Source: Terriglobia bacterium (GTDB lineage Bacteria; Acidobacteriota; Terriglobia; 20CM-2-55-15). From it: a stretch of 64,000 nucleotides of DNA. The notes beneath the pieces were generated by a model, which was given only the letters and a program-made list of their open reading frames with translations, ran no database searches and was not told the origin of the DNA. Made by a program: the position numbers and the translations under genes. The stretch covers positions 155,674 to 219,673 of the forward strand of contig CBDBIN010000041.1 in NCBI GenBank assembly GCA_965206125.1, in the 5' to 3' direction. This document shows positions 2,185 through 48,872 of the stretch, one piece after another; the stretch's first letter is position 1, and each line of letters starts with the position of its first letter.

Positions 2185-2763
2185 TCAGGCCGCCTGATAC
2201 TGGGCCTGATAGTCGCAGTCTCGTTTCCAGACCGCCCACACTCTTCGGGCCAGCTTGTTGGCCACCGCAACGGCCGCCTTGTTATGTCCTCGAAGTTCCT
2301 GAAGTCGAACACCCCATCGCTGTAATTCCGATGGGGTCTCTGCCTTCTGGGCCCTCCATAACACCGAACGACCTCCGTGGATGAGCAGCGTCCTGAGATA
2401 GCGATCACCACGCTTACTGATTCGATCCAACCGACGCTGATTGCCACTGGAATGTTCCCGCGGTGTGAGTCCCAGATAGCTGGCAAACTGGCGCGATGAT
2501 CGAAATCGCTGGATATCGCCGACAAACCCCACCAGGGCTGTGGCGGTCAACAGCCCTACTCCAGGGATCGAGCGGAGACGCGCCACCACCGGTGTTTGCT
2601 CGGCCAGAGATTTCAGCTCCCTGTCCACGGTGTGTAAGTGAGACTCCAGTTCCCGTATCTCTTCACACACTTGGTCCAACATCTCCCGAACCACACTGGG
2701 GATCTCGATCTCGGCATCCTCGATCAGTCCCATCACTCCCGGTACCAGATGGCGTGCGCCGAG
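2185..2763 (-). mobile_element. IS110-family transposase, C-terminal (Transposase_20-like) fragment only; N-terminal DEDD domain missing
   Basis: Translation carries SIPGVGLLTATALVGFVGDIQRFRSSRQFASYLGLTPREHSSG...ISKRGDRYLRTLL, the typical IS110/IS116/IS902 C-terminal block. An in-frame stop lies at 2764-2766, so the N-terminal half is missing. Confidence 0.7.
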
Positions 2764-2806
2764 TCAAGCCCATTCTTAGTTGAAACTCTCCACGGCTCAC
2801 GATTGG

Positions 2807-3490
2807 TCACGCAACCTTCTTCTTCGATCTCGTCGACGTCTTCGCCTCAATCTTCAGCTCCCGCCTGAGGGCTTCGCGGAGCTTTGGAAGATGACGGTAG
2901 CCGATCACCTTCCTCAAGCGTCGTTCGATGTCGATGAGCGCCGTCGCCAACCAGCGCTGCCGCTGGCTCGAGTTCTTCCAATGATCGACCTTCGCGCACC
3001 TTTCCTCGACGAGGGCATTGACCGATTCCAAGCAATTCGTCGTCTTGAACGAACGGCCCAGGACCCCGTACACGCCGAGTCGATGCAACGTGAGGGTCTC
3101 CTCCAGGCCTTCCTCAAGGCTCGCAGCGGCCGATTGGTTTCGCTCCTCGAGCTCTCCATGGAGCTGTTCGAGGGCCGCCCGGGCTTCGTTGTACTCCGGG
3201 CGCTGGTACGCACGCTGAAGCCGCTTGCGCCACGCGGCTTGCTCGGTCTTCGACAGGTAGCTCACCACGTTCTCGCGTTTGTGCCATTGGCAGCGTTGGA
3301 CCAGGGCTCGATTACCGAATGCCCGCTTGACTGCCGCGCGCAGACCTTTGCCGCCGTCGACGATCACCAGCACGCCTTCAGAGATGTCCAGGCCTCGCTC
3401 CATCAATGAACGGAGAAACGGAGTCAGTACCTGCTCGTTCTCCGTACTCGTCTCCACGAAGCCTAAGAAGCGTTTGTCGCCCGTAACCAT
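2807..3490 (-). mobile_element. IS256-family (Mutator-like) transposase, C-terminal half fragment
   Basis: 227-aa ORF with the IS256 C-terminal signature (...QRCQWHKRENVVSYL...). It lacks the N-terminal ~170 aa that carry the first DDE residues. The fragment abuts the truncated kinase gene at 3490/3494. Confidence 0.75.
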
Positions 3491-3634
3491 GCTGCACTAG
3501 AGCGCCAGGCTGACGAGCGAGCGGCCTTTTTAGACGAGATCTGCCTCGACGACGCAGATCTGCGCCGGGAGGTCGAATCACTGCTCGGCTACGCGTCCAA
3601 AGCGGAAGGATTCATCCAAGAACCCGCTCTGGAT

Positions 3635-6334
3635 GTGGTCGCTCAAGGCATGCCCCAACAGCTGGCACAGCCGATGATCGGGCGGCATGTCGGGGTTTAC
3701 GAGATCCAGGCCCTGATCGGTCGGGGAGGGATGGGCGATGTCTATCAGGCCCGGGACTCCCGGCTGGACCGCAACGTTGCGATTAAGACGTTACCGGACG
3801 TGTTCAGTTCGGATCCCGAGCGGCTGTCCCGGTTCGAGCGCGAGGCCAGGATCGTCGCTTCTCTCAACCATCCCAATATCGCGGTCATCCATGGGCTTGA
3901 AGAATACGACGGAAACCGTTTTCTCGTTCAGGAGCTGGTTGCGGGCGAAACACTGGCGGAGCAGCTCGAAGACGGCCCGCTTCCCATCAAGGAAGCGCTT
4001 CAACTGGCGGTTCAGATTGCTGCGGCGCTCGAAGCCGCCCACGAGAACGGCATCATCCATCGGGACCTGAAGCCTGCCAACATCAAGGTGACCCCCGATG
4101 ATCTCGTGAAGGTTCTCGACTTCGGCCTGGCCAAATCGATGGCGCGAGATGATGCCGACATGAACGCGTCGGTCGCCGTGACGGCCTCGACCGAACCCGG
4201 AGTTATCCTGGGGACGGCGGCCTACATGAGTCCCGAGCAGGCACGTGGCAAGCGGGTCGACAAACGGACCGACATCTGGGCGTTCGGATGCGTCTTGTAC
4301 GAAATGCTTACTGGGCGCCGACCGTTTGTGGGTGAAACACTTTCAGACGCGATCGCCAAGATTCTCGAGACCGAACCCGACTGGCAATGCCTCCCCGAGG
4401 GAATCCACCCAAGGATTCGCGAACTGATCGAACGTTGCCTCGACAAGGACGTCAAGAGTCGGTGGCACGACATCGCGGATGTGCGGTTGGACATTCAGAA
4501 GGTTCTGACCGATCCGGACGGCACCGTGGTCCAGCCCGTCGTCGCCGCGCAATCCCAGATCACGATCCCTTCGTCGCAAATCCGGGTCGTCGCCATCTTG
4601 TTGGTCGTGGCGCTGGCCGGCTATGCGGTCTGGCGCCTGATTCGCCCTGAACCGCCCACCCCGCTTACGGTATCTCGCTTCTCGTTGACCCTTCCCGAAA
4701 CCGATGAGATCACCGGCAGCGGTGTGATGACCCTGTCACCGGACGGCAACCGGTTCGTCTATGCGGCCGCACGCGACGGGGTGCAGCAGCTCTTCCTCCG
4801 TTTCCGGGATCAATCGGACCCGATCCCGATCCCGGACACCGAGGGCGCAGTACACCCGTTTTTCTCGCCAGACGGCAACTCGGTGGGCTTTTTTGCAGGA
4901 GGCGTGTTAAAGAAGATCCCGTCTTCAGGTGGATCCGCCGCGACCGTCAGTCGGGCCGGCCACTACGGCCCATCCAGTTGGGGACCCGACGAAAGCATCG
5001 TGTTCGCTTCGGTGACGGGACTGATGCAGGTGCCGACGGCAGGGGGCGAACCCCGACCGCTCACTACAGTAAATGGGGCCGACATGCACCTGTGGCCGGC
5101 GTTCCTCCCGGATGGAAAGGCCGTGCTCTTCACGATCTGGAAGAGGGGCGCACTTTCGGAGAAGAAGGTGGCAGTGGTCTCGCTAGAGACCGGCGAGCAG
5201 CACGTTCTGGCGGATGGCGCCGTTGCCCATTATGCTTCGTCGGGACATCTCGTCTTCGGACGTGAAGGTTCGCTCTGGGCGGCGCGATTTGATACGGAGC
5301 GCCTGGAGCTGACGGGAGAACCTGTTCCGACGGTCGAAGACGTCGAGGTCGACTCCTATGGTTGGACGGACTACTCGATTGCAGGAGACGGCTCACTGGT
5401 CTATCGGGCCGGCGTGGAACCGGCAGGCCGCACGCTTGTGTGGGTAGACCGGGACGGGCAGGAAGAGCCCCTCGCGGCGGCTCCGCGCAACTATTTCGAT
5501 CCCAGCATTTCCCCCGACGGGACACGAGTCGCCTTGACCGTTCTCGATGGCAGTGAGGTTCGAGAGAGCCAGAGCATCTGGATCTGGGACCTCACCCGCG
5601 AGACGCTGACCCGGCTGACCTCCGATGAGGGGATGGACGTCAAGCCTGTCTGGACACGCGATAGTCAGCGTATCGCTTTCATGTCGGACCGCCCGGATGG
5701 CTCCGGTGTCTACTGGACGGCAGCCGACGGCACCGGGAGGCCTGAACGCCTCGTGTCGGCTCCGGATCGATTCCTCGTCCCGACTTCCTGGTCTGGTGAC
5801 GGGAACACGATGTTGCTTTCCGAGGTCTTGAGCGACAACACCGGTTTTGACATCGGTGCGCTGTCGATGGATGGAGACCACGAGTTGAAACATCTCCTGC
5901 AGGAAGAATTCATTGAAGCCGGTGCGTACACCTCACCAGATGGGCGGTGGATGGCCTATGTGTCCACGGAGTCGGGCGGCCGTGAAATCTACGTGAGGCC
6001 GTTCCCCGACGTGGAAGCCGGAAAGTGGAGGGTGTCCACAGAGGGTGGAACGGACTCCGGGTGGTCGCCCGATGGGCGGGAATTGTTCTACCGTGCCGGC
6101 CCGGCGATGATGTCTGTCGCCGTGGAAACCGAGCCGACCTTCAGCGCGGGGATTCCGAAGACCCTATTCGAAGGAACGTATTTTGCGGCGGTGGGTCCGC
6201 AGTGGGCGGTCGGCTCGGACGGACGGTTCCTCATGATCAAGCGCGGTTCGACCTCGGACCGCACCGCGGTTCCACGCTTCAACGTCGTCCTGAACTGGTT
6301 TGAAGAGCTGAAGGAACGAGTGCCGCCGCCGTAA
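3635..6334 (+). CDS. Ser/Thr protein kinase with transmembrane segment and C-terminal TolB-like beta-propeller; N-terminally truncated by the IS256 fragment
   Basis: Kinase motifs GRGGMGDVY, VAIK, HRDLKPANIKV, DFGLAK and GTAAYMSPEQ are present. A TM helix (RVVAILLVVALAGYAVW) is followed by repeated SPDG propeller motifs and the conserved tail LNWFEELKERVPPP. In-frame upstream sequence 3467-3634 encodes ...ALERQADERAAFLDEICLDDADLRREVESLL, the family N-terminal extension, and has no start codon: the first ~20 codons are lost to the IS256 junction. Confidence 0.85.
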   Translation: MVAQGMPQQLAQPMIGRHVGVYEIQALIGRGGMGDVYQARDSRLDRNVAIKTLPDVFSSDPERLSRFEREARIVASLNHPNIAVIHGLEEYDGNRFLVQELVAGETLAEQLEDGPLPIKEALQLAVQIAAALEAAHENGIIHRDLKPANIKVTPDDLVKVLDFGLAKSMARDDADMNASVAVTASTEPGVILGTAAYMSPEQARGKRVDKRTDIWAFGCVLYEMLTGRRPFVGETLSDAIAKILETEPDWQCLPEGIHPRIRELIERCLDKDVKSRWHDIADVRLDIQKVLTDPDGTVVQPVVAAQSQITIPSSQIRVVAILLVVALAGYAVWRLIRPEPPTPLTVSRFSLTLPETDEITGSGVMTLSPDGNRFVYAAARDGVQQLFLRFRDQSDPIPIPDTEGAVHPFFSPDGNSVGFFAGGVLKKIPSSGGSAATVSRAGHYGPSSWGPDESIVFASVTGLMQVPTAGGEPRPLTTVNGADMHLWPAFLPDGKAVLFTIWKRGALSEKKVAVVSLETGEQHVLADGAVAHYASSGHLVFGREGSLWAARFDTERLELTGEPVPTVEDVEVDSYGWTDYSIAGDGSLVYRAGVEPAGRTLVWVDRDGQEEPLAAAPRNYFDPSISPDGTRVALTVLDGSEVRESQSIWIWDLTRETLTRLTSDEGMDVKPVWTRDSQRIAFMSDRPDGSGVYWTAADGTGRPERLVSAPDRFLVPTSWSGDGNTMLLSEVLSDNTGFDIGALSMDGDHELKHLLQEEFIEAGAYTSPDGRWMAYVSTESGGREIYVRPFPDVEAGKWRVSTEGGTDSGWSPDGRELFYRAGPAMMSVAVETEPTFSAGIPKTLFEGTYFAAVGPQWAVGSDGRFLMIKRGSTSDRTAVPRFNVVLNWFEELKERVPPP

Positions 6335-21821: not shown

Positions 21822-21894
<73 letters not shown>

Positions 21895-27438: not shown

Positions 27439-27465
27439 TTCTATAGATTTTACTCTACCGTCCTG

Positions 27466-27500
27466 GAGTTCGGCGGCCCCTCGGGCCGCCGATTTTTTTG
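27466..27500 (+). terminator. Rho-independent terminator (GGCGGCCCCTCGGGCCGCC stem-loop plus T7 run)
   Basis: GC-rich 8-9 bp stem with a CTCG loop, immediately followed by ATTTTTTTG. Confidence 0.65.
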
Positions 27501-27526: not shown

Positions 27527-27637
27527 TCAGCCACGGATTACACGGATTTAACGGATTGACAGAGTTCCTTTCGGACGGGCAGTCCGAACATAACTTCCTC
27601 TTCCTTCTATCCGTTAAATCCGTGCAATCCGTGGCTC
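27527..27637. promoter_or_regulatory. Long palindrome/operator-like element upstream of polX: 29-nt arms (27/29 match) each made of three ACGGATT direct repeats at 9-bp spacing, with a 51-nt loop containing a nested hairpin
   Basis: Left arm cagCCACGGATTaCACGGATTTAACGGATt. Right arm is its reverse complement (aATCCGTTAAATCCGTGcAATCCGTGGctc). The loop has TTCGGACgggcAGTCCGAA. The element lies between the terminator and the polX start at 27667. Confidence 0.6.
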
Positions 27638-46337: not shown

Positions 46338-47616
46338 TTACCCGCCACTCGAAAGTTCCCGGATCTTCTGTTCGACACTTTCGACGAATTGGGGATACTG
46401 GCTGGAACCGAGTTCGAGGAAGCGGTTGAAATGATCGATCGCCTCGCGGACCTCGCCTTGCTCTTCGTACAGCCAACCGAGGTTGTAGTGGGCTGCGGCG
46501 CTCGCCGGGTTGGCCTGGAGAGCCTCGAGATACAGGATCTTGGCCCGCTCCGTCTCACCCTCGTTCCTGTAATGGTTGGCGAGGTTCGTGATGGCATCGG
46601 CGTTCCGCGGGTTTATGGCGATCGCCCGCTCGTATTCCCGGACGGCTTCCGACTCCTGACCCGCTTCCAGGAGGGCCGTTCCCAGGTTGTTGTGGGCCAG
46701 GTCGTAGTTGGGGTTGATCACGATCGCGAGCCGGAACTCTTCGATCGCAGCGGCATTGTTCGACATCGCCATGTAGAGCAATCCGAGGTTGTTCCTGGCG
46801 GAGGCGTTCCGAGGATCGGCATCGAGAACCTGGATGTAATAGGGCAGAGCTTCTAAGTAGCGACCGGCCTGGTGATAGAGCAGGGCCGAATCGAACGGAT
46901 CGCTGACCGCAGGCTCGACCCGTGGATCGCCTGCCGCCGGCGGATTCGGCGATGATGCGGGATCATCCCCGGCGAGTGTTGTCTGGATCGCGATCTCATC
47001 CTCGCCCGGCGTCGCGGACCCGGGTCCGGTATCTACCGCACCCTCGGGGTCCAGATCCTGGGCAGCGGGCTCGTCTGGTTCTATTGCTAGCGACGGCTCC
47101 GCATCAGGAGCAGGCACGGGTGGCGGCGTTGCGTTGGACGTTTCGGCTTGCTCCATCGTCGGTGGTTCGGGCTCCTGGGCCCCAGAGGCCGGGCCTGGCT
47201 CTTGCTCCCCGGCGGCCACCGGATCGCCCTCTACGACTTCGCCGGTCCCCGCCTCCCCACCGTCCGGGCTCGCCTCTTCTGGCCCGCCCTCTTCGGGTCC
47301 GTCCTCAGGGGGCAACAGGCCATCGTCGTCCGGGAACAGCGGGTCGGTTCCGGGAGCTGGGTCGATCTCGAGCAACTGAGCCTGCTCGGCCATGGGTGAG
47401 GAGGCGGTCCGGTTGATCCAGTAGAGCACCCCCGAGGCAATAATCGCGCCGAGTACAACGACCGGTACGACATAGGTCAGCAGGATCTTCTTTGTCTTGT
47501 TTCCTTTGGCCTGTTCTGCGAAACCGAAGCTCTTGAGGTAAGCCGGCGCCTTCTGAGGCCGCGGACCCGCCCGCCAGCTTCTTTGCCTTGCGCAGTGCGT
47601 CGAGGATGGAGCTCAT
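46338..47616 (-). CDS. GspB/MshN-like protein: N-terminal MSSILDALRKAKK motif, TM helix, Pro/Glu-rich linker, C-terminal TPR repeats; apparent +1 frameshift between the N-terminal 30 codons and the rest
   Basis: ATG at 47616 encodes MSSILDALRKAKKLAGG. The TPR ORF frame is open upstream to that point with no start of its own (…KAPAYLKSFGFAEQAKGNKTKKILLTYVVPVVVLGAIIASGVLYWINR). Confidence 0.5.
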
Positions 47617-47640
47617 GAGCCTCTCTGGTCTGATCTCAGT

Positions 47641-47916
47641 CTAGCAGCCTGTGGCAGAACCCTGTGGGGCCGCGCGCACGGGTCTTCGGGTCGCGGGCGC
47701 GAAGAGAGGAGGGCACGATGCGGTTTCATCGTAACCGACGAGGGACAAAGCCCGAGGCCCGAACCCCCATGCGCCCGAAGGGTTACGGCGAAACGGCACC
47801 GGATTCGTTGTCGTCGACTCCTCACAATGAAAGGGCATTGTCTCGTCCTCGTCTCCTAGAATCCGGTGCCGTTTGGCCGTAACGCGACCCCACAGGGTTC
47901 TGCCACAGGCTGCTAG
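47641..47916. repeat. MITE-like/long palindromic element (276 bp): perfect 29-bp terminal inverted repeats CTAGCAGCCTGTGGCAGAACCCTGTGGGG, plus nested inner inverted repeats (GGTTACGGCGAAACGGCACCGGATTC / GAATCCGGTGCCGTTTGGCCGTAAC)
   Basis: Seen directly. Bases 47641-47669 are the exact reverse complement of 47888-47916. The inner IR pair is 47779-47806 versus 47858-47885. The left half carries a 109-bp insertion between outer and inner repeats. Confidence 0.75.
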
Positions 47917-48872
47917 CCGCCTACTCCGTTCACGATTGCCACCAGCGCCAGCGCGAGCAGGATAGACAGCCCCACGACGAGGGCCGTCCGCCGCATCCCG
48001 AACAGGGCCTTGGACCACGTCGACAAACCGGTCCCGGACCGGTACTTCTTCAACTGAAGGTTGTGGATCGCCTGCTCGGCCACACCCCCGTCGATCGTGC
48101 CGGCGCCGGTCGCCATCCCGGCCAGGAGTGACCGGTCCGCGATGAGGTTGATCAGCCGGGGCACACCACCGGAGTACTCGCATATCTCCTTAACGGCGGA
48201 AGGCGCGAACGACACCCTCGCCGTGCTGCCACCCGCCACCGAAAGGCGGTGCCGGAGGTAGTCGCCGACTTCCGATGGCGACAGCGCCGAAAGCTCGCAC
48301 TTGATCGAGACCCTCTGGAAGAGCTGCCGGAGCTCGGGCTGGGACAGGAGGTCCAGCAGGTTGAGCTGCCCGACGAGTACGATTTGGAGCAGCTTGTCCT
48401 TGTTGGTTTCCAGGTTTGACAGGATCCGGATCTGCTCGAGCGTTGCCATCGGAATGTTCTGCGCCTCGTCGATCAAGACGACCGCTCGTTGCCCCGCCTC
48501 GAGGGTCTTCAGGAGAAAGTCGTTCAGCGTGTTGATGAGATCCTGCTTCGTCACCGCCTCGCCGTTCTTCCTGCGAGGGGGCTTGACGTCGAAGTCTTCC
48601 AGGATTGCTTTGATCAGGTCGGTTTCCGACAGGAACGGGTTGAGCAGGAGCGCGGTGCATACGCCCTTGTCGATCGTGTCCAGCACGGTCCGGCACAGAG
48701 TGGTCTTGCCCGTTCCGATGTCCCCGTACACGATCATGAAGCCTTCCCGCCTCTGAATGCCGTACTGGAGCAGTTCGAAAGCCCGCGTGTGGCCTTCGCT
48801 CCGGTAGAAGTACTTCGGATCGGGTGTCAGGCTGAACGGTGGTTCGATCAGACCGTAGTGTTCTTCATACAT
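47913..48872 (-). CDS. GspA/ExeA/MshM-family AAA ATPase
   Basis: Walker A GDIGTGKTTL, ExeA-like blocks (LLLNPFLSETDL, VVLIDEAQNIPMATLEQIRILSNLE), C-terminal TM helix. Confidence 0.75.
   Translation of the reverse strand: MYEEHYGLIEPPFSLTPDPKYFYRSEGHTRAFELLQYGIQRREGFMIVYGDIGTGKTTLCRTVLDTIDKGVCTALLLNPFLSETDLIKAILEDFDVKPPRRKNGEAVTKQDLINTLNDFLLKTLEAGQRAVVLIDEAQNIPMATLEQIRILSNLETNKDKLLQIVLVGQLNLLDLLSQPELRQLFQRVSIKCELSALSPSEVGDYLRHRLSVAGGSTARVSFAPSAVKEICEYSGGVPRLINLIADRSLLAGMATGAGTIDGGVAEQAIHNLQLKKYRSGTGLSTWSKALFGMRRTALVVGLSILLALALVAIVNGVGG

Follow-up and report, generated by a model that had tools for sequence, protein, structure and literature searches.

The palindromic element that separates a gspA-like gene from a gspB-like gene in the 64-kb stretch of Terriglobia DNA analyzed here (64,000 nucleotides, referred to as the window) is very probably a MITE, a nonautonomous DNA transposon, of a family from the Terriglobia (Acidobacteriota). 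Its ends would be the recognition ends of an insertion sequence (IS) of approximately 1.49 kb, and the 465-aa transposase of this IS, acting in trans, most likely moved the element into the CTAG that holds the gspA stop codon. Prokaryotic MITEs are characterized by terminal repeats of at least 10 to 15 bp, a target duplication of 2 to 10 bp, a size of 50 to 800 bp, and the lack of a transposase (PMC11602168); the element described here is 268 bp long, encodes no transposase, has 30-nt terminal repeats and a 4-bp duplication, occurs as dispersed copies, is polymorphic, and has ends that match those of an IS. A preliminary description of this DNA, made from the sequence alone, had read it as a MITE-like mobile element, and that reading agrees well with the dispersed copies, the empty site, the target duplication, the nested insertions, and the autonomous IS with matching ends that we report below.

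Bases 47641 to 47669 of the window are the exact reverse complement of bases 47888 to 47916, as the preliminary description had stated, and pairing of the outer arms reaches 34 nt (47641 to 47674 with 47883 to 47916), with 97% complementarity over this length and a perfect match over the outer 29 nt. These arms measure 34 nt with the CTAG and 30 nt without it. The inner inverted repeat that had also been described is real, with measured arms of 25 nt (47782 to 47806 and 47859 to 47883) that are 96% complementary. The 29-mer of the outer arm occurs at only two positions within the 64-kb window and in none of 100 dinucleotide-preserving shuffles; the inner arm is likewise confined to its two positions in the window, again with no occurrence in 100 such shuffles. 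The limits of the element (Table 1) were set by the limits of homology among its copies and by its absence from two orthologous loci, L008 and L009. The 276-bp extent first given therefore holds for the palindrome but not for the element, since the outermost CTAG on each side is duplicated target. A 109-bp segment present only in the left half had been taken for an insertion; it is found in every member of the family and is itself a conserved hairpin, and comparison of the copies indicates that it is part of the ancestral architecture and no later insertion into the window copy.

The open reading frames of the element are not conserved between copies, which differ by a stop codon (L004), a 7-nt indel (L003), and many nonsynonymous changes. 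A 54-aa open reading frame on the plus strand (47719 onwards, with GGAGG located 6 nt before its ATG) was considered as a true small gene and was rejected on the basis of the premature stop codon in L004 and substitutions that are mostly nonsynonymous.

Table 1. Features of the element and of its host locus (positions are those of the window)
Feature	Position	Strand	Basis or remark
TPR protein with GspB-like N terminus (downstream gene)	46338..47616	-	ATG at 47616, 25 nt past the left CTAG
Left target site duplication, CTAG	47641..47644	.	Direct repeat at 47913-47916; single CTAG in the empty site of L008/L009
MITE proper, 268 bp, CAGCC...GGCTG, CAGCCTGTGG to CCACAGGCTG, without a conserved ORF	47645..47912	.	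Homology limits; absence from L008/L009
Left terminal inverted repeat, with two 13-nt direct subrepeats ending in CCTGTGG	47645..47674	+	First 16 nt match the L028/L029 IRR at 14/16
Branch 1 of the predicted fold (left-only segment), own hairpin	47674..47774	.	Consensus helices 2 to 6; compensatory changes; all subfamilies
Branch 2 of the predicted fold: inner inverted repeat, 52-nt loop with small hairpin	47782..47883	.	Helix 8: 10/19 pairs changed on both sides
Right terminal inverted repeat	47883..47912	-	Complementarity to the left arm; match to IS end
Right target site duplication, CTAG; 47913-47915 is the TAG stop of the gspA-like gene (minus strand)	47913..47916	.	Stop kept in filled and empty sites
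gspA/ExeA-like AAA ATPase, 319 aa (upstream gene)	47913..48872	-	Homologues with PF13401/PF13191

The clearest evidence of insertion comes from the orthologous site. The closest relative (L008/L009), whose nucleotide identity to the window is 94% for gspA and 87% for the gene downstream of it, lacks the element at the same gspA stop codon and has a single CTAG there, in the sequence GGCGGCTAGCAACCTGAGATC (also given as GGCGGCTAGCAACCTGAGATCAG). On the minus strand of the window, the filled site reads GGCGG-CTAG-(268 bp, CAGCC...GGCTG)-CTAG-ACTGAGATC (ACTGAGATCAG), so that one CTAG in L008/L009 stands against two in the window; except for a small indel (CAAC versus A) immediately beyond the CTAG, the empty site is exact. 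The remoter orthologous loci, in which gspA has approximately 80% amino acid identity, have unrelated spacers of 60 to 80 bp. The possibility raised in the preliminary description, that there would be no other copies and that the same sequence would be conserved as intergenic DNA at orthologous loci, is clearly contradicted, because these loci hold either the empty site or unrelated spacers.

Other copies of the family are readily found. A 20-mer of the outer arm was compared with 185,579 species genomes (one per species) and matched seven loci, all of them in one Terriglobia metagenome-assembled genome (CAXWPM01) and none of them the window itself. Four of these loci (L001, L003, L004, and L006) carry full-length copies that are 92 to 96% identical to the window copy and have unrelated flanks, and the other three (L002, L005, and L007) are solo arms. 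Further copies were sought by searching a protein database with the four concatenated reading-frame translations of the element. This search returned 15 predicted "proteins" (P0121 to P0135) that are gene calls running through copies of the element, some of them fused to real genes, namely, a fumarase C-terminal domain, a histidine phosphatase, LigT, and a transposase. The contigs of these spurious proteins contain copies at 96 to 98% identity (L013, L014, and L015), another genome has copies at 75 to 83% identity (L016), and a further MITE copy is present in L026. An exact 20-mer scan of metagenomes gave no match; a degenerate repeat pattern applied to JGI soil metagenomes located copies at 70 to 75% identity in L018, L022, and L024. 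No copy was found in the viral contigs that were scanned, and the window contains only one. The occurrence of the same element in independent assemblies rules out an assembly artifact. Across the family, copies adjoin unrelated genes and lie in both orientations relative to the upstream gene.

The window copy is flanked by the 4-bp duplication CTAG/CTAG, and the 4-mers that precede CAGCC in 43 arms conform to YTAR in 27 cases (CTAG in 17 arms, TTAG in 5, CTAA in 4, and TTAA in 1), with the 16 others mostly one base away. Palindromic flanks could in principle be an extension of the inverted repeat; since an extended inverted repeat cannot yield nonpalindromic direct repeats, the flanks CTAA/CTAA (L016b) and TTAG/TTAG (L015B) identify a true 4-bp duplication. 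Models with a 2-bp (TA) duplication or with no duplication were compared with the 4-bp model and lost to it on the basis of these nonpalindromic repeats and of the IS copies described below. The duplication is perfect in only 7 of 19 full-length copies, with a difference at one position in 6 copies and at two or more positions in another 6. Decay, recombination between copies, insertion without duplication, or consensus errors are possible explanations for the imperfect flanks: insertion without target duplication has been described for some ISs (bioRxiv 10.1101/2024.06.02.596822), and many of the contigs with copies are, by their names, long-read assemblies at 2 to 6x coverage. In CAXWPM01, none of the four full-length copies has a perfect duplication; the two adjacent bases are invariant and the outer two vary.

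The target motif is strongly depleted in the window, where CTAG occurs 38 times compared with approximately 229 occurrences expected from base composition and YTAR sites number 164 in 64 kb; 16% of these YTAR sites are stop codons of long open reading frames. Seven of approximately 27 family insertions adjoin the stop codon of a real gene (L002, L004, L007, L015, L018, and L021), including those of dnaA (L021) and dxr (L015). With YTAR as the target, approximately one insertion in four falls exactly on a stop codon, roughly as the distribution of the depleted motif predicts, and a special targeting of stop codons was rejected because this proportion is not clearly above site availability.

The candidate autonomous partner came to light through P0133, one of the spurious proteins, in which the C-terminal half of a DDE_Tnp_1 transposase is followed by the translation of a MITE copy. 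Its contig (L026) carries a 1,488-bp IS at 2451 to 3938, flanked by CTAT/CTAT, and directly adjoining it a 360-bp MITE copy at 3943 to 4302 that is likewise flanked by CTAT; the transposase is frameshifted in this 2x assembly. Intact homologues of 465 aa are abundant, and elements of 1,484 to 1,485 bp were delimited in L027 to L030, with duplications of TTAG/TTAG in both L027 and L028, CTAG/CTAG in L030, and CTAA/CTAG in L029. The duplications of the partner IS fit a 4-bp YTAR target, with the one CTAT outside strict YTAR, and IS5 is known to duplicate 5'-YTAR-3' (PMC5009759). The IS ends of L027 to L030 read CAG(C/T)CCGTGG..., and the family repeat starts with the same 17 nt as the right end (IRR) of L028 and L029, CAGCCCGTGGCAGAAGT (17/17). 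No IS-derived sequence was found inside the MITE beyond the terminal 15 to 17 nt; past that point the two are unrelated, and the MITE is therefore no simple internal deletion of the IS.

The transposase contains the DUF772 (PF05598, 2.5e-17) and DDE_Tnp_1 (PF01609, 1.4e-6) domains, and the same two domains are recorded in the precomputed annotation of P0136 to P0255. Its best NCBIfam models are IS1182 and then IS5, with scores below the curated cutoffs (140 to 148 bits versus 270 for IS1182; 80 to 88 versus 140 for IS5_4); for this reason, we call it IS5/IS1182-like and claim membership of neither group. On these scores, the enzyme represents a divergent lineage. Recent activity is suggested by two IS copies that lie at different loci of one sample and share 99.9% identity. 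When the transposase was compared by tblastn with the window and with L001 to L026, it matched L026 only, and no copy of this IS was found in the 64-kb window or in the CAXWPM01 loci examined.

Based on these data, the following course of events can be envisioned. The element, which carries no transposase, would present ends beginning CAGCCYGTGGCAGAA... that act as the recognition ends of the approximately 1.49-kb IS. The 465-aa transposase would bind the terminal 17 to 30 nt of both ends and, acting in trans, would have cut and pasted (or copied) the element into the CTAG holding the gspA-like stop codon. The insertion would have duplicated the 4-bp target and, because this duplication regenerates TAG, would have left GspA unchanged.

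The family includes subfamilies that have inserted into one another. Subfamily A lies inside subfamily B in L013 and L015. A-in-B copies occupy the same position of B at three genomic loci (L013, 4979 to 5523; L015, 4924 to 5473; L007, 6428 to 6535), of which L007 contains a hybrid formed by recombination between A and B; either B has been struck repeatedly at a single YTAR site or the composite moves as a unit. Two further noncoding elements have related ends and unrelated interiors, namely, a 361-bp element with the same ends (L025, 6318 to 6678) and a 130-bp element with the common terminal sequence CTAGCAGCCTGT (L013, 6122 to 6251). Several MITE families seem to use one transposase. The CTAG of the 130-bp MITE contains an IS630-family IS (L013, 6249 to 7390) with a 360-aa transposase (NF033545, 2.5e-81) and a TA duplication.

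This arrangement bears on a different mechanism, in which an IS630/Tc1-mariner-type transposase would have moved the MITE by insertion at the TA of CTAG, with duplication of TA alone. A TA does precede most arms, often within CTAG; the IS630-family IS in L013, with its TA duplication, is located in a CTAG at the end of the related 130-bp MITE; and the terminal repeat of this IS, aligned in the same register, agrees with the MITE repeat in 10 of the 16 outermost positions. However, the nonpalindromic 4-bp repeats around both MITE and IS copies (CTAA/CTAA, TTAG/TTAG, and CTAT/CTAT) are not expected from a TA duplication, the IS5/IS1182-like IS agrees with the family repeat in all 17 of the outermost 17 positions, and no IS630 copy with these ends was found, so we consider this mechanism improbable. 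Spread as a REP/REPIN-type palindromic repeat by a RAYT (an IS200/IS605-like Y1 transposase) is extremely improbable. The long hairpin-forming repeat, the solo arms in L002, L005, and L007, and the GTAG that precedes a few arms recall such repeats; yet the arms are not palindromes and contain direct 13-nt subrepeats instead, the ends are shared with a DDE-type IS, target site duplications are present where RAYT/IS200-type movement makes none, and inspection of the loci examined revealed a RAYT gene in none of them. Movement by the IS5/IS1182-like transposase is the reading that we retain.

The interior of the element is highly structured. The minus strand, which is the strand of the flanking genes, folds as RNA with a predicted energy of -185.8 kcal/mol, compared with -119 +/- 5 kcal/mol for shuffled sequences (z = -12.6). 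A consensus fold built from an alignment of 11 copies spanning all subfamilies has three parts, an outer stem formed by the terminal repeats and the left and right hairpins listed in Table 1. Both sides were altered with pairing kept in 38 of 88 pairs, and 96.4% of cells were paired; 500 shuffles gave a mean of 20.2 +/- 2.5 pairs changed on both sides, none reaching 38, and sliding the partners by 1 to 3 columns gave 4 to 9 pairs, a contrast that is somewhat inflated because the structure was derived from the same alignment. All three helices are kept by compensatory changes across subfamilies down to approximately 70% identity.

Covariation of this strength exceeds the need of a bare transposase-binding end and counts against a simple MITE explanation. 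In an alternative view, the element is a structured RNA or DNA with a function in the gspA-gspB operon, such as a cis-regulatory RNA, a site of RNase III processing, an attenuator, or a cruciform bound by protein, and its mobility is secondary or absent. The very stable fold and the conserved three-branch structure speak for this possibility, as do the changes in transcript processing known for Correia, ERIC, and other MITEs (PMC10969869). On the other hand, the closest relative has no copy in this operon, nor has any other orthologous locus, and the copies of the family lie beside unrelated genes in both orientations. At gathering scores, the only match of the window to an Rfam covariance model was one tRNA gene elsewhere (21822 to 21894, minus strand), and 47500 to 48050 gave no match even at an E value of up to 1. 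Counts of G-U cells (29) and A-C cells (16) do not clearly favor one strand, and the unbiased cells and mixed orientations fit a DNA-palindrome constraint, or passive arm-to-arm correction, better than a strand-specific RNA. Nor are there signs of a terminator: the minus strand sequence after the hairpin is CTAGACTGAGATCAG, which has no T-run, and neither a sigma-70-type promoter consensus nor an intrinsic terminator consensus was found in 47300 to 48300, so that the attenuator or terminator function suggested in the preliminary description is not borne out. The nucleoid-protein binding site suggested there likewise gained no support, as the analysis yielded nothing that spoke either for it or against it. 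Overall, a primary role in the operon appears quite improbable, and we favor the MITE interpretation.

Within the MITE interpretation, the interior may still be no neutral filler. Since the helices are kept by compensation, yet the IS has only the terminal 15 to 17 nt in common with the MITE, folding as such could be a requirement, either of a DNA hairpin or cruciform that draws the two ends together for the transposase or of an RNA that has a separate function (for instance, as a module for processing or insulation between cistrons). This suggestion is unlikely, though not negligible; if it were true, it would represent a structural requirement undescribed for IS5/IS1182-type transposition.

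At the host locus, both flanking genes are on the minus strand, in keeping with the earlier placement of the element between two secretion-like genes of the same strand; JGI names the homologues of the 319-aa ATPase general secretion pathway protein A, and a search for proteins exactly identical to the GspA of the window returned none. The 25-bp flanks described for the intergenic gap hold on the left, where 25 bp lead to the downstream start codon, but not on the right, where the gspA-like stop codon falls within the CTAG and leaves no spacer. With the element in place, the distance between the cistrons grows from approximately 30 nt to approximately 300 nt, and any transcript that reads through would contain a very stable hairpin with three branches. 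Both the ATG of the downstream gene and a Shine-Dalgarno-like AGAGAGG would fall outside the element and remain unpaired in the predicted fold. The element may affect expression of the operon; if it behaves like Correia and ERIC elements (PMC10969869), RNase III might cleave the hairpin, or the stability of the transcript might change. The filled and empty sites provide a natural pair of alleles with which to study a 268-nt hairpin between the cistrons of a type II secretion/type IV pilus-like operon.

The gspB-like gene is frameshifted in the window by one extra G near 47560 (47555 to 47565; TCCGCGGCCTCAG versus TCCGCGCCTCAG in L008), which splits it into open reading frames of 103 aa and 363 aa. 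The orthologues of L010, L011, and L008 are in frame, and the extra G may be either a true frameshift or a consensus or assembly error.

The candidate partner is reminiscent of IS5 of Escherichia coli and of the IS5/IS1182 group: it encodes a single DDE transposase with DUF772 and DDE_Tnp_1, measures approximately 1.5 kb, has short terminal inverted repeats, and makes 4-bp duplications of YTAR-type targets, which have been reported for IS5 (PMC5009759). Unlike that group, the partner transposase falls below both NCBIfam cutoffs and one of its duplications, CTAT, lies outside strict YTAR, and the window holds a nonautonomous derivative only. Among small repeats, the Correia elements of Neisseria (NEMIS/CREE) are likewise noncoding, with terminal inverted repeats and a TA-centered duplicated target, and like the present family they often lie between genes of one operon; they are transcribed into long hairpins that are cut by RNase III in Neisseria (PMC10969869). 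Correia elements are 100 to 200 bp long, duplicate TA, carry promoters and an IHF site, and have no firmly assigned transposase partner, whereas the window element is 268 bp long, has a 4-bp duplication, is predicted to fold into three branches, lacks a promoter consensus, and can be paired with a candidate partner IS. The ERIC/IRU and RUP/BOX-type MITEs resemble the family as dispersed, imperfect intergenic palindromes that are cotranscribed with flanking genes and have conserved secondary structure, and ERIC has been reported to influence the stability of mRNA (PMC10969869). Unlike the window element, they belong to other phyla and are unrelated in sequence. RUP is linked to an IS630-type transposase with TA duplication.

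In the literature that we searched, neither this family nor any acidobacterial MITE is described: one review does not mention the Acidobacteriota, one survey mentions the phylum for phage-borne MITEs only, and a full-text search with the repeat sequence returned unrelated primer matches only. MITEs as a class are well known; the family appears to be new, and the strongly covarying three-branch interior is its one unusual feature. For the Acidobacteriota, a soil-abundant and largely uncultured phylum, these results document a MITE family together with the IS that is its likely parent. Such elements also have practical consequences, in that they break assemblies, with many IS homologues found on contigs of approximately 1.5 kb, and seed spurious gene calls, the 15 predicted database proteins being translations of the element.

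A second palindrome, unrelated in sequence to the MITE, is located at 27529 to 27636 of the window. It is 108 bp long, with 31-nt arms that are 94% complementary and contain three ACGGATT-like heptads each, and it lies just past a terminator-like hairpin followed by T7 (27464 to 27499); a 621-aa open reading frame begins inside or beside it.
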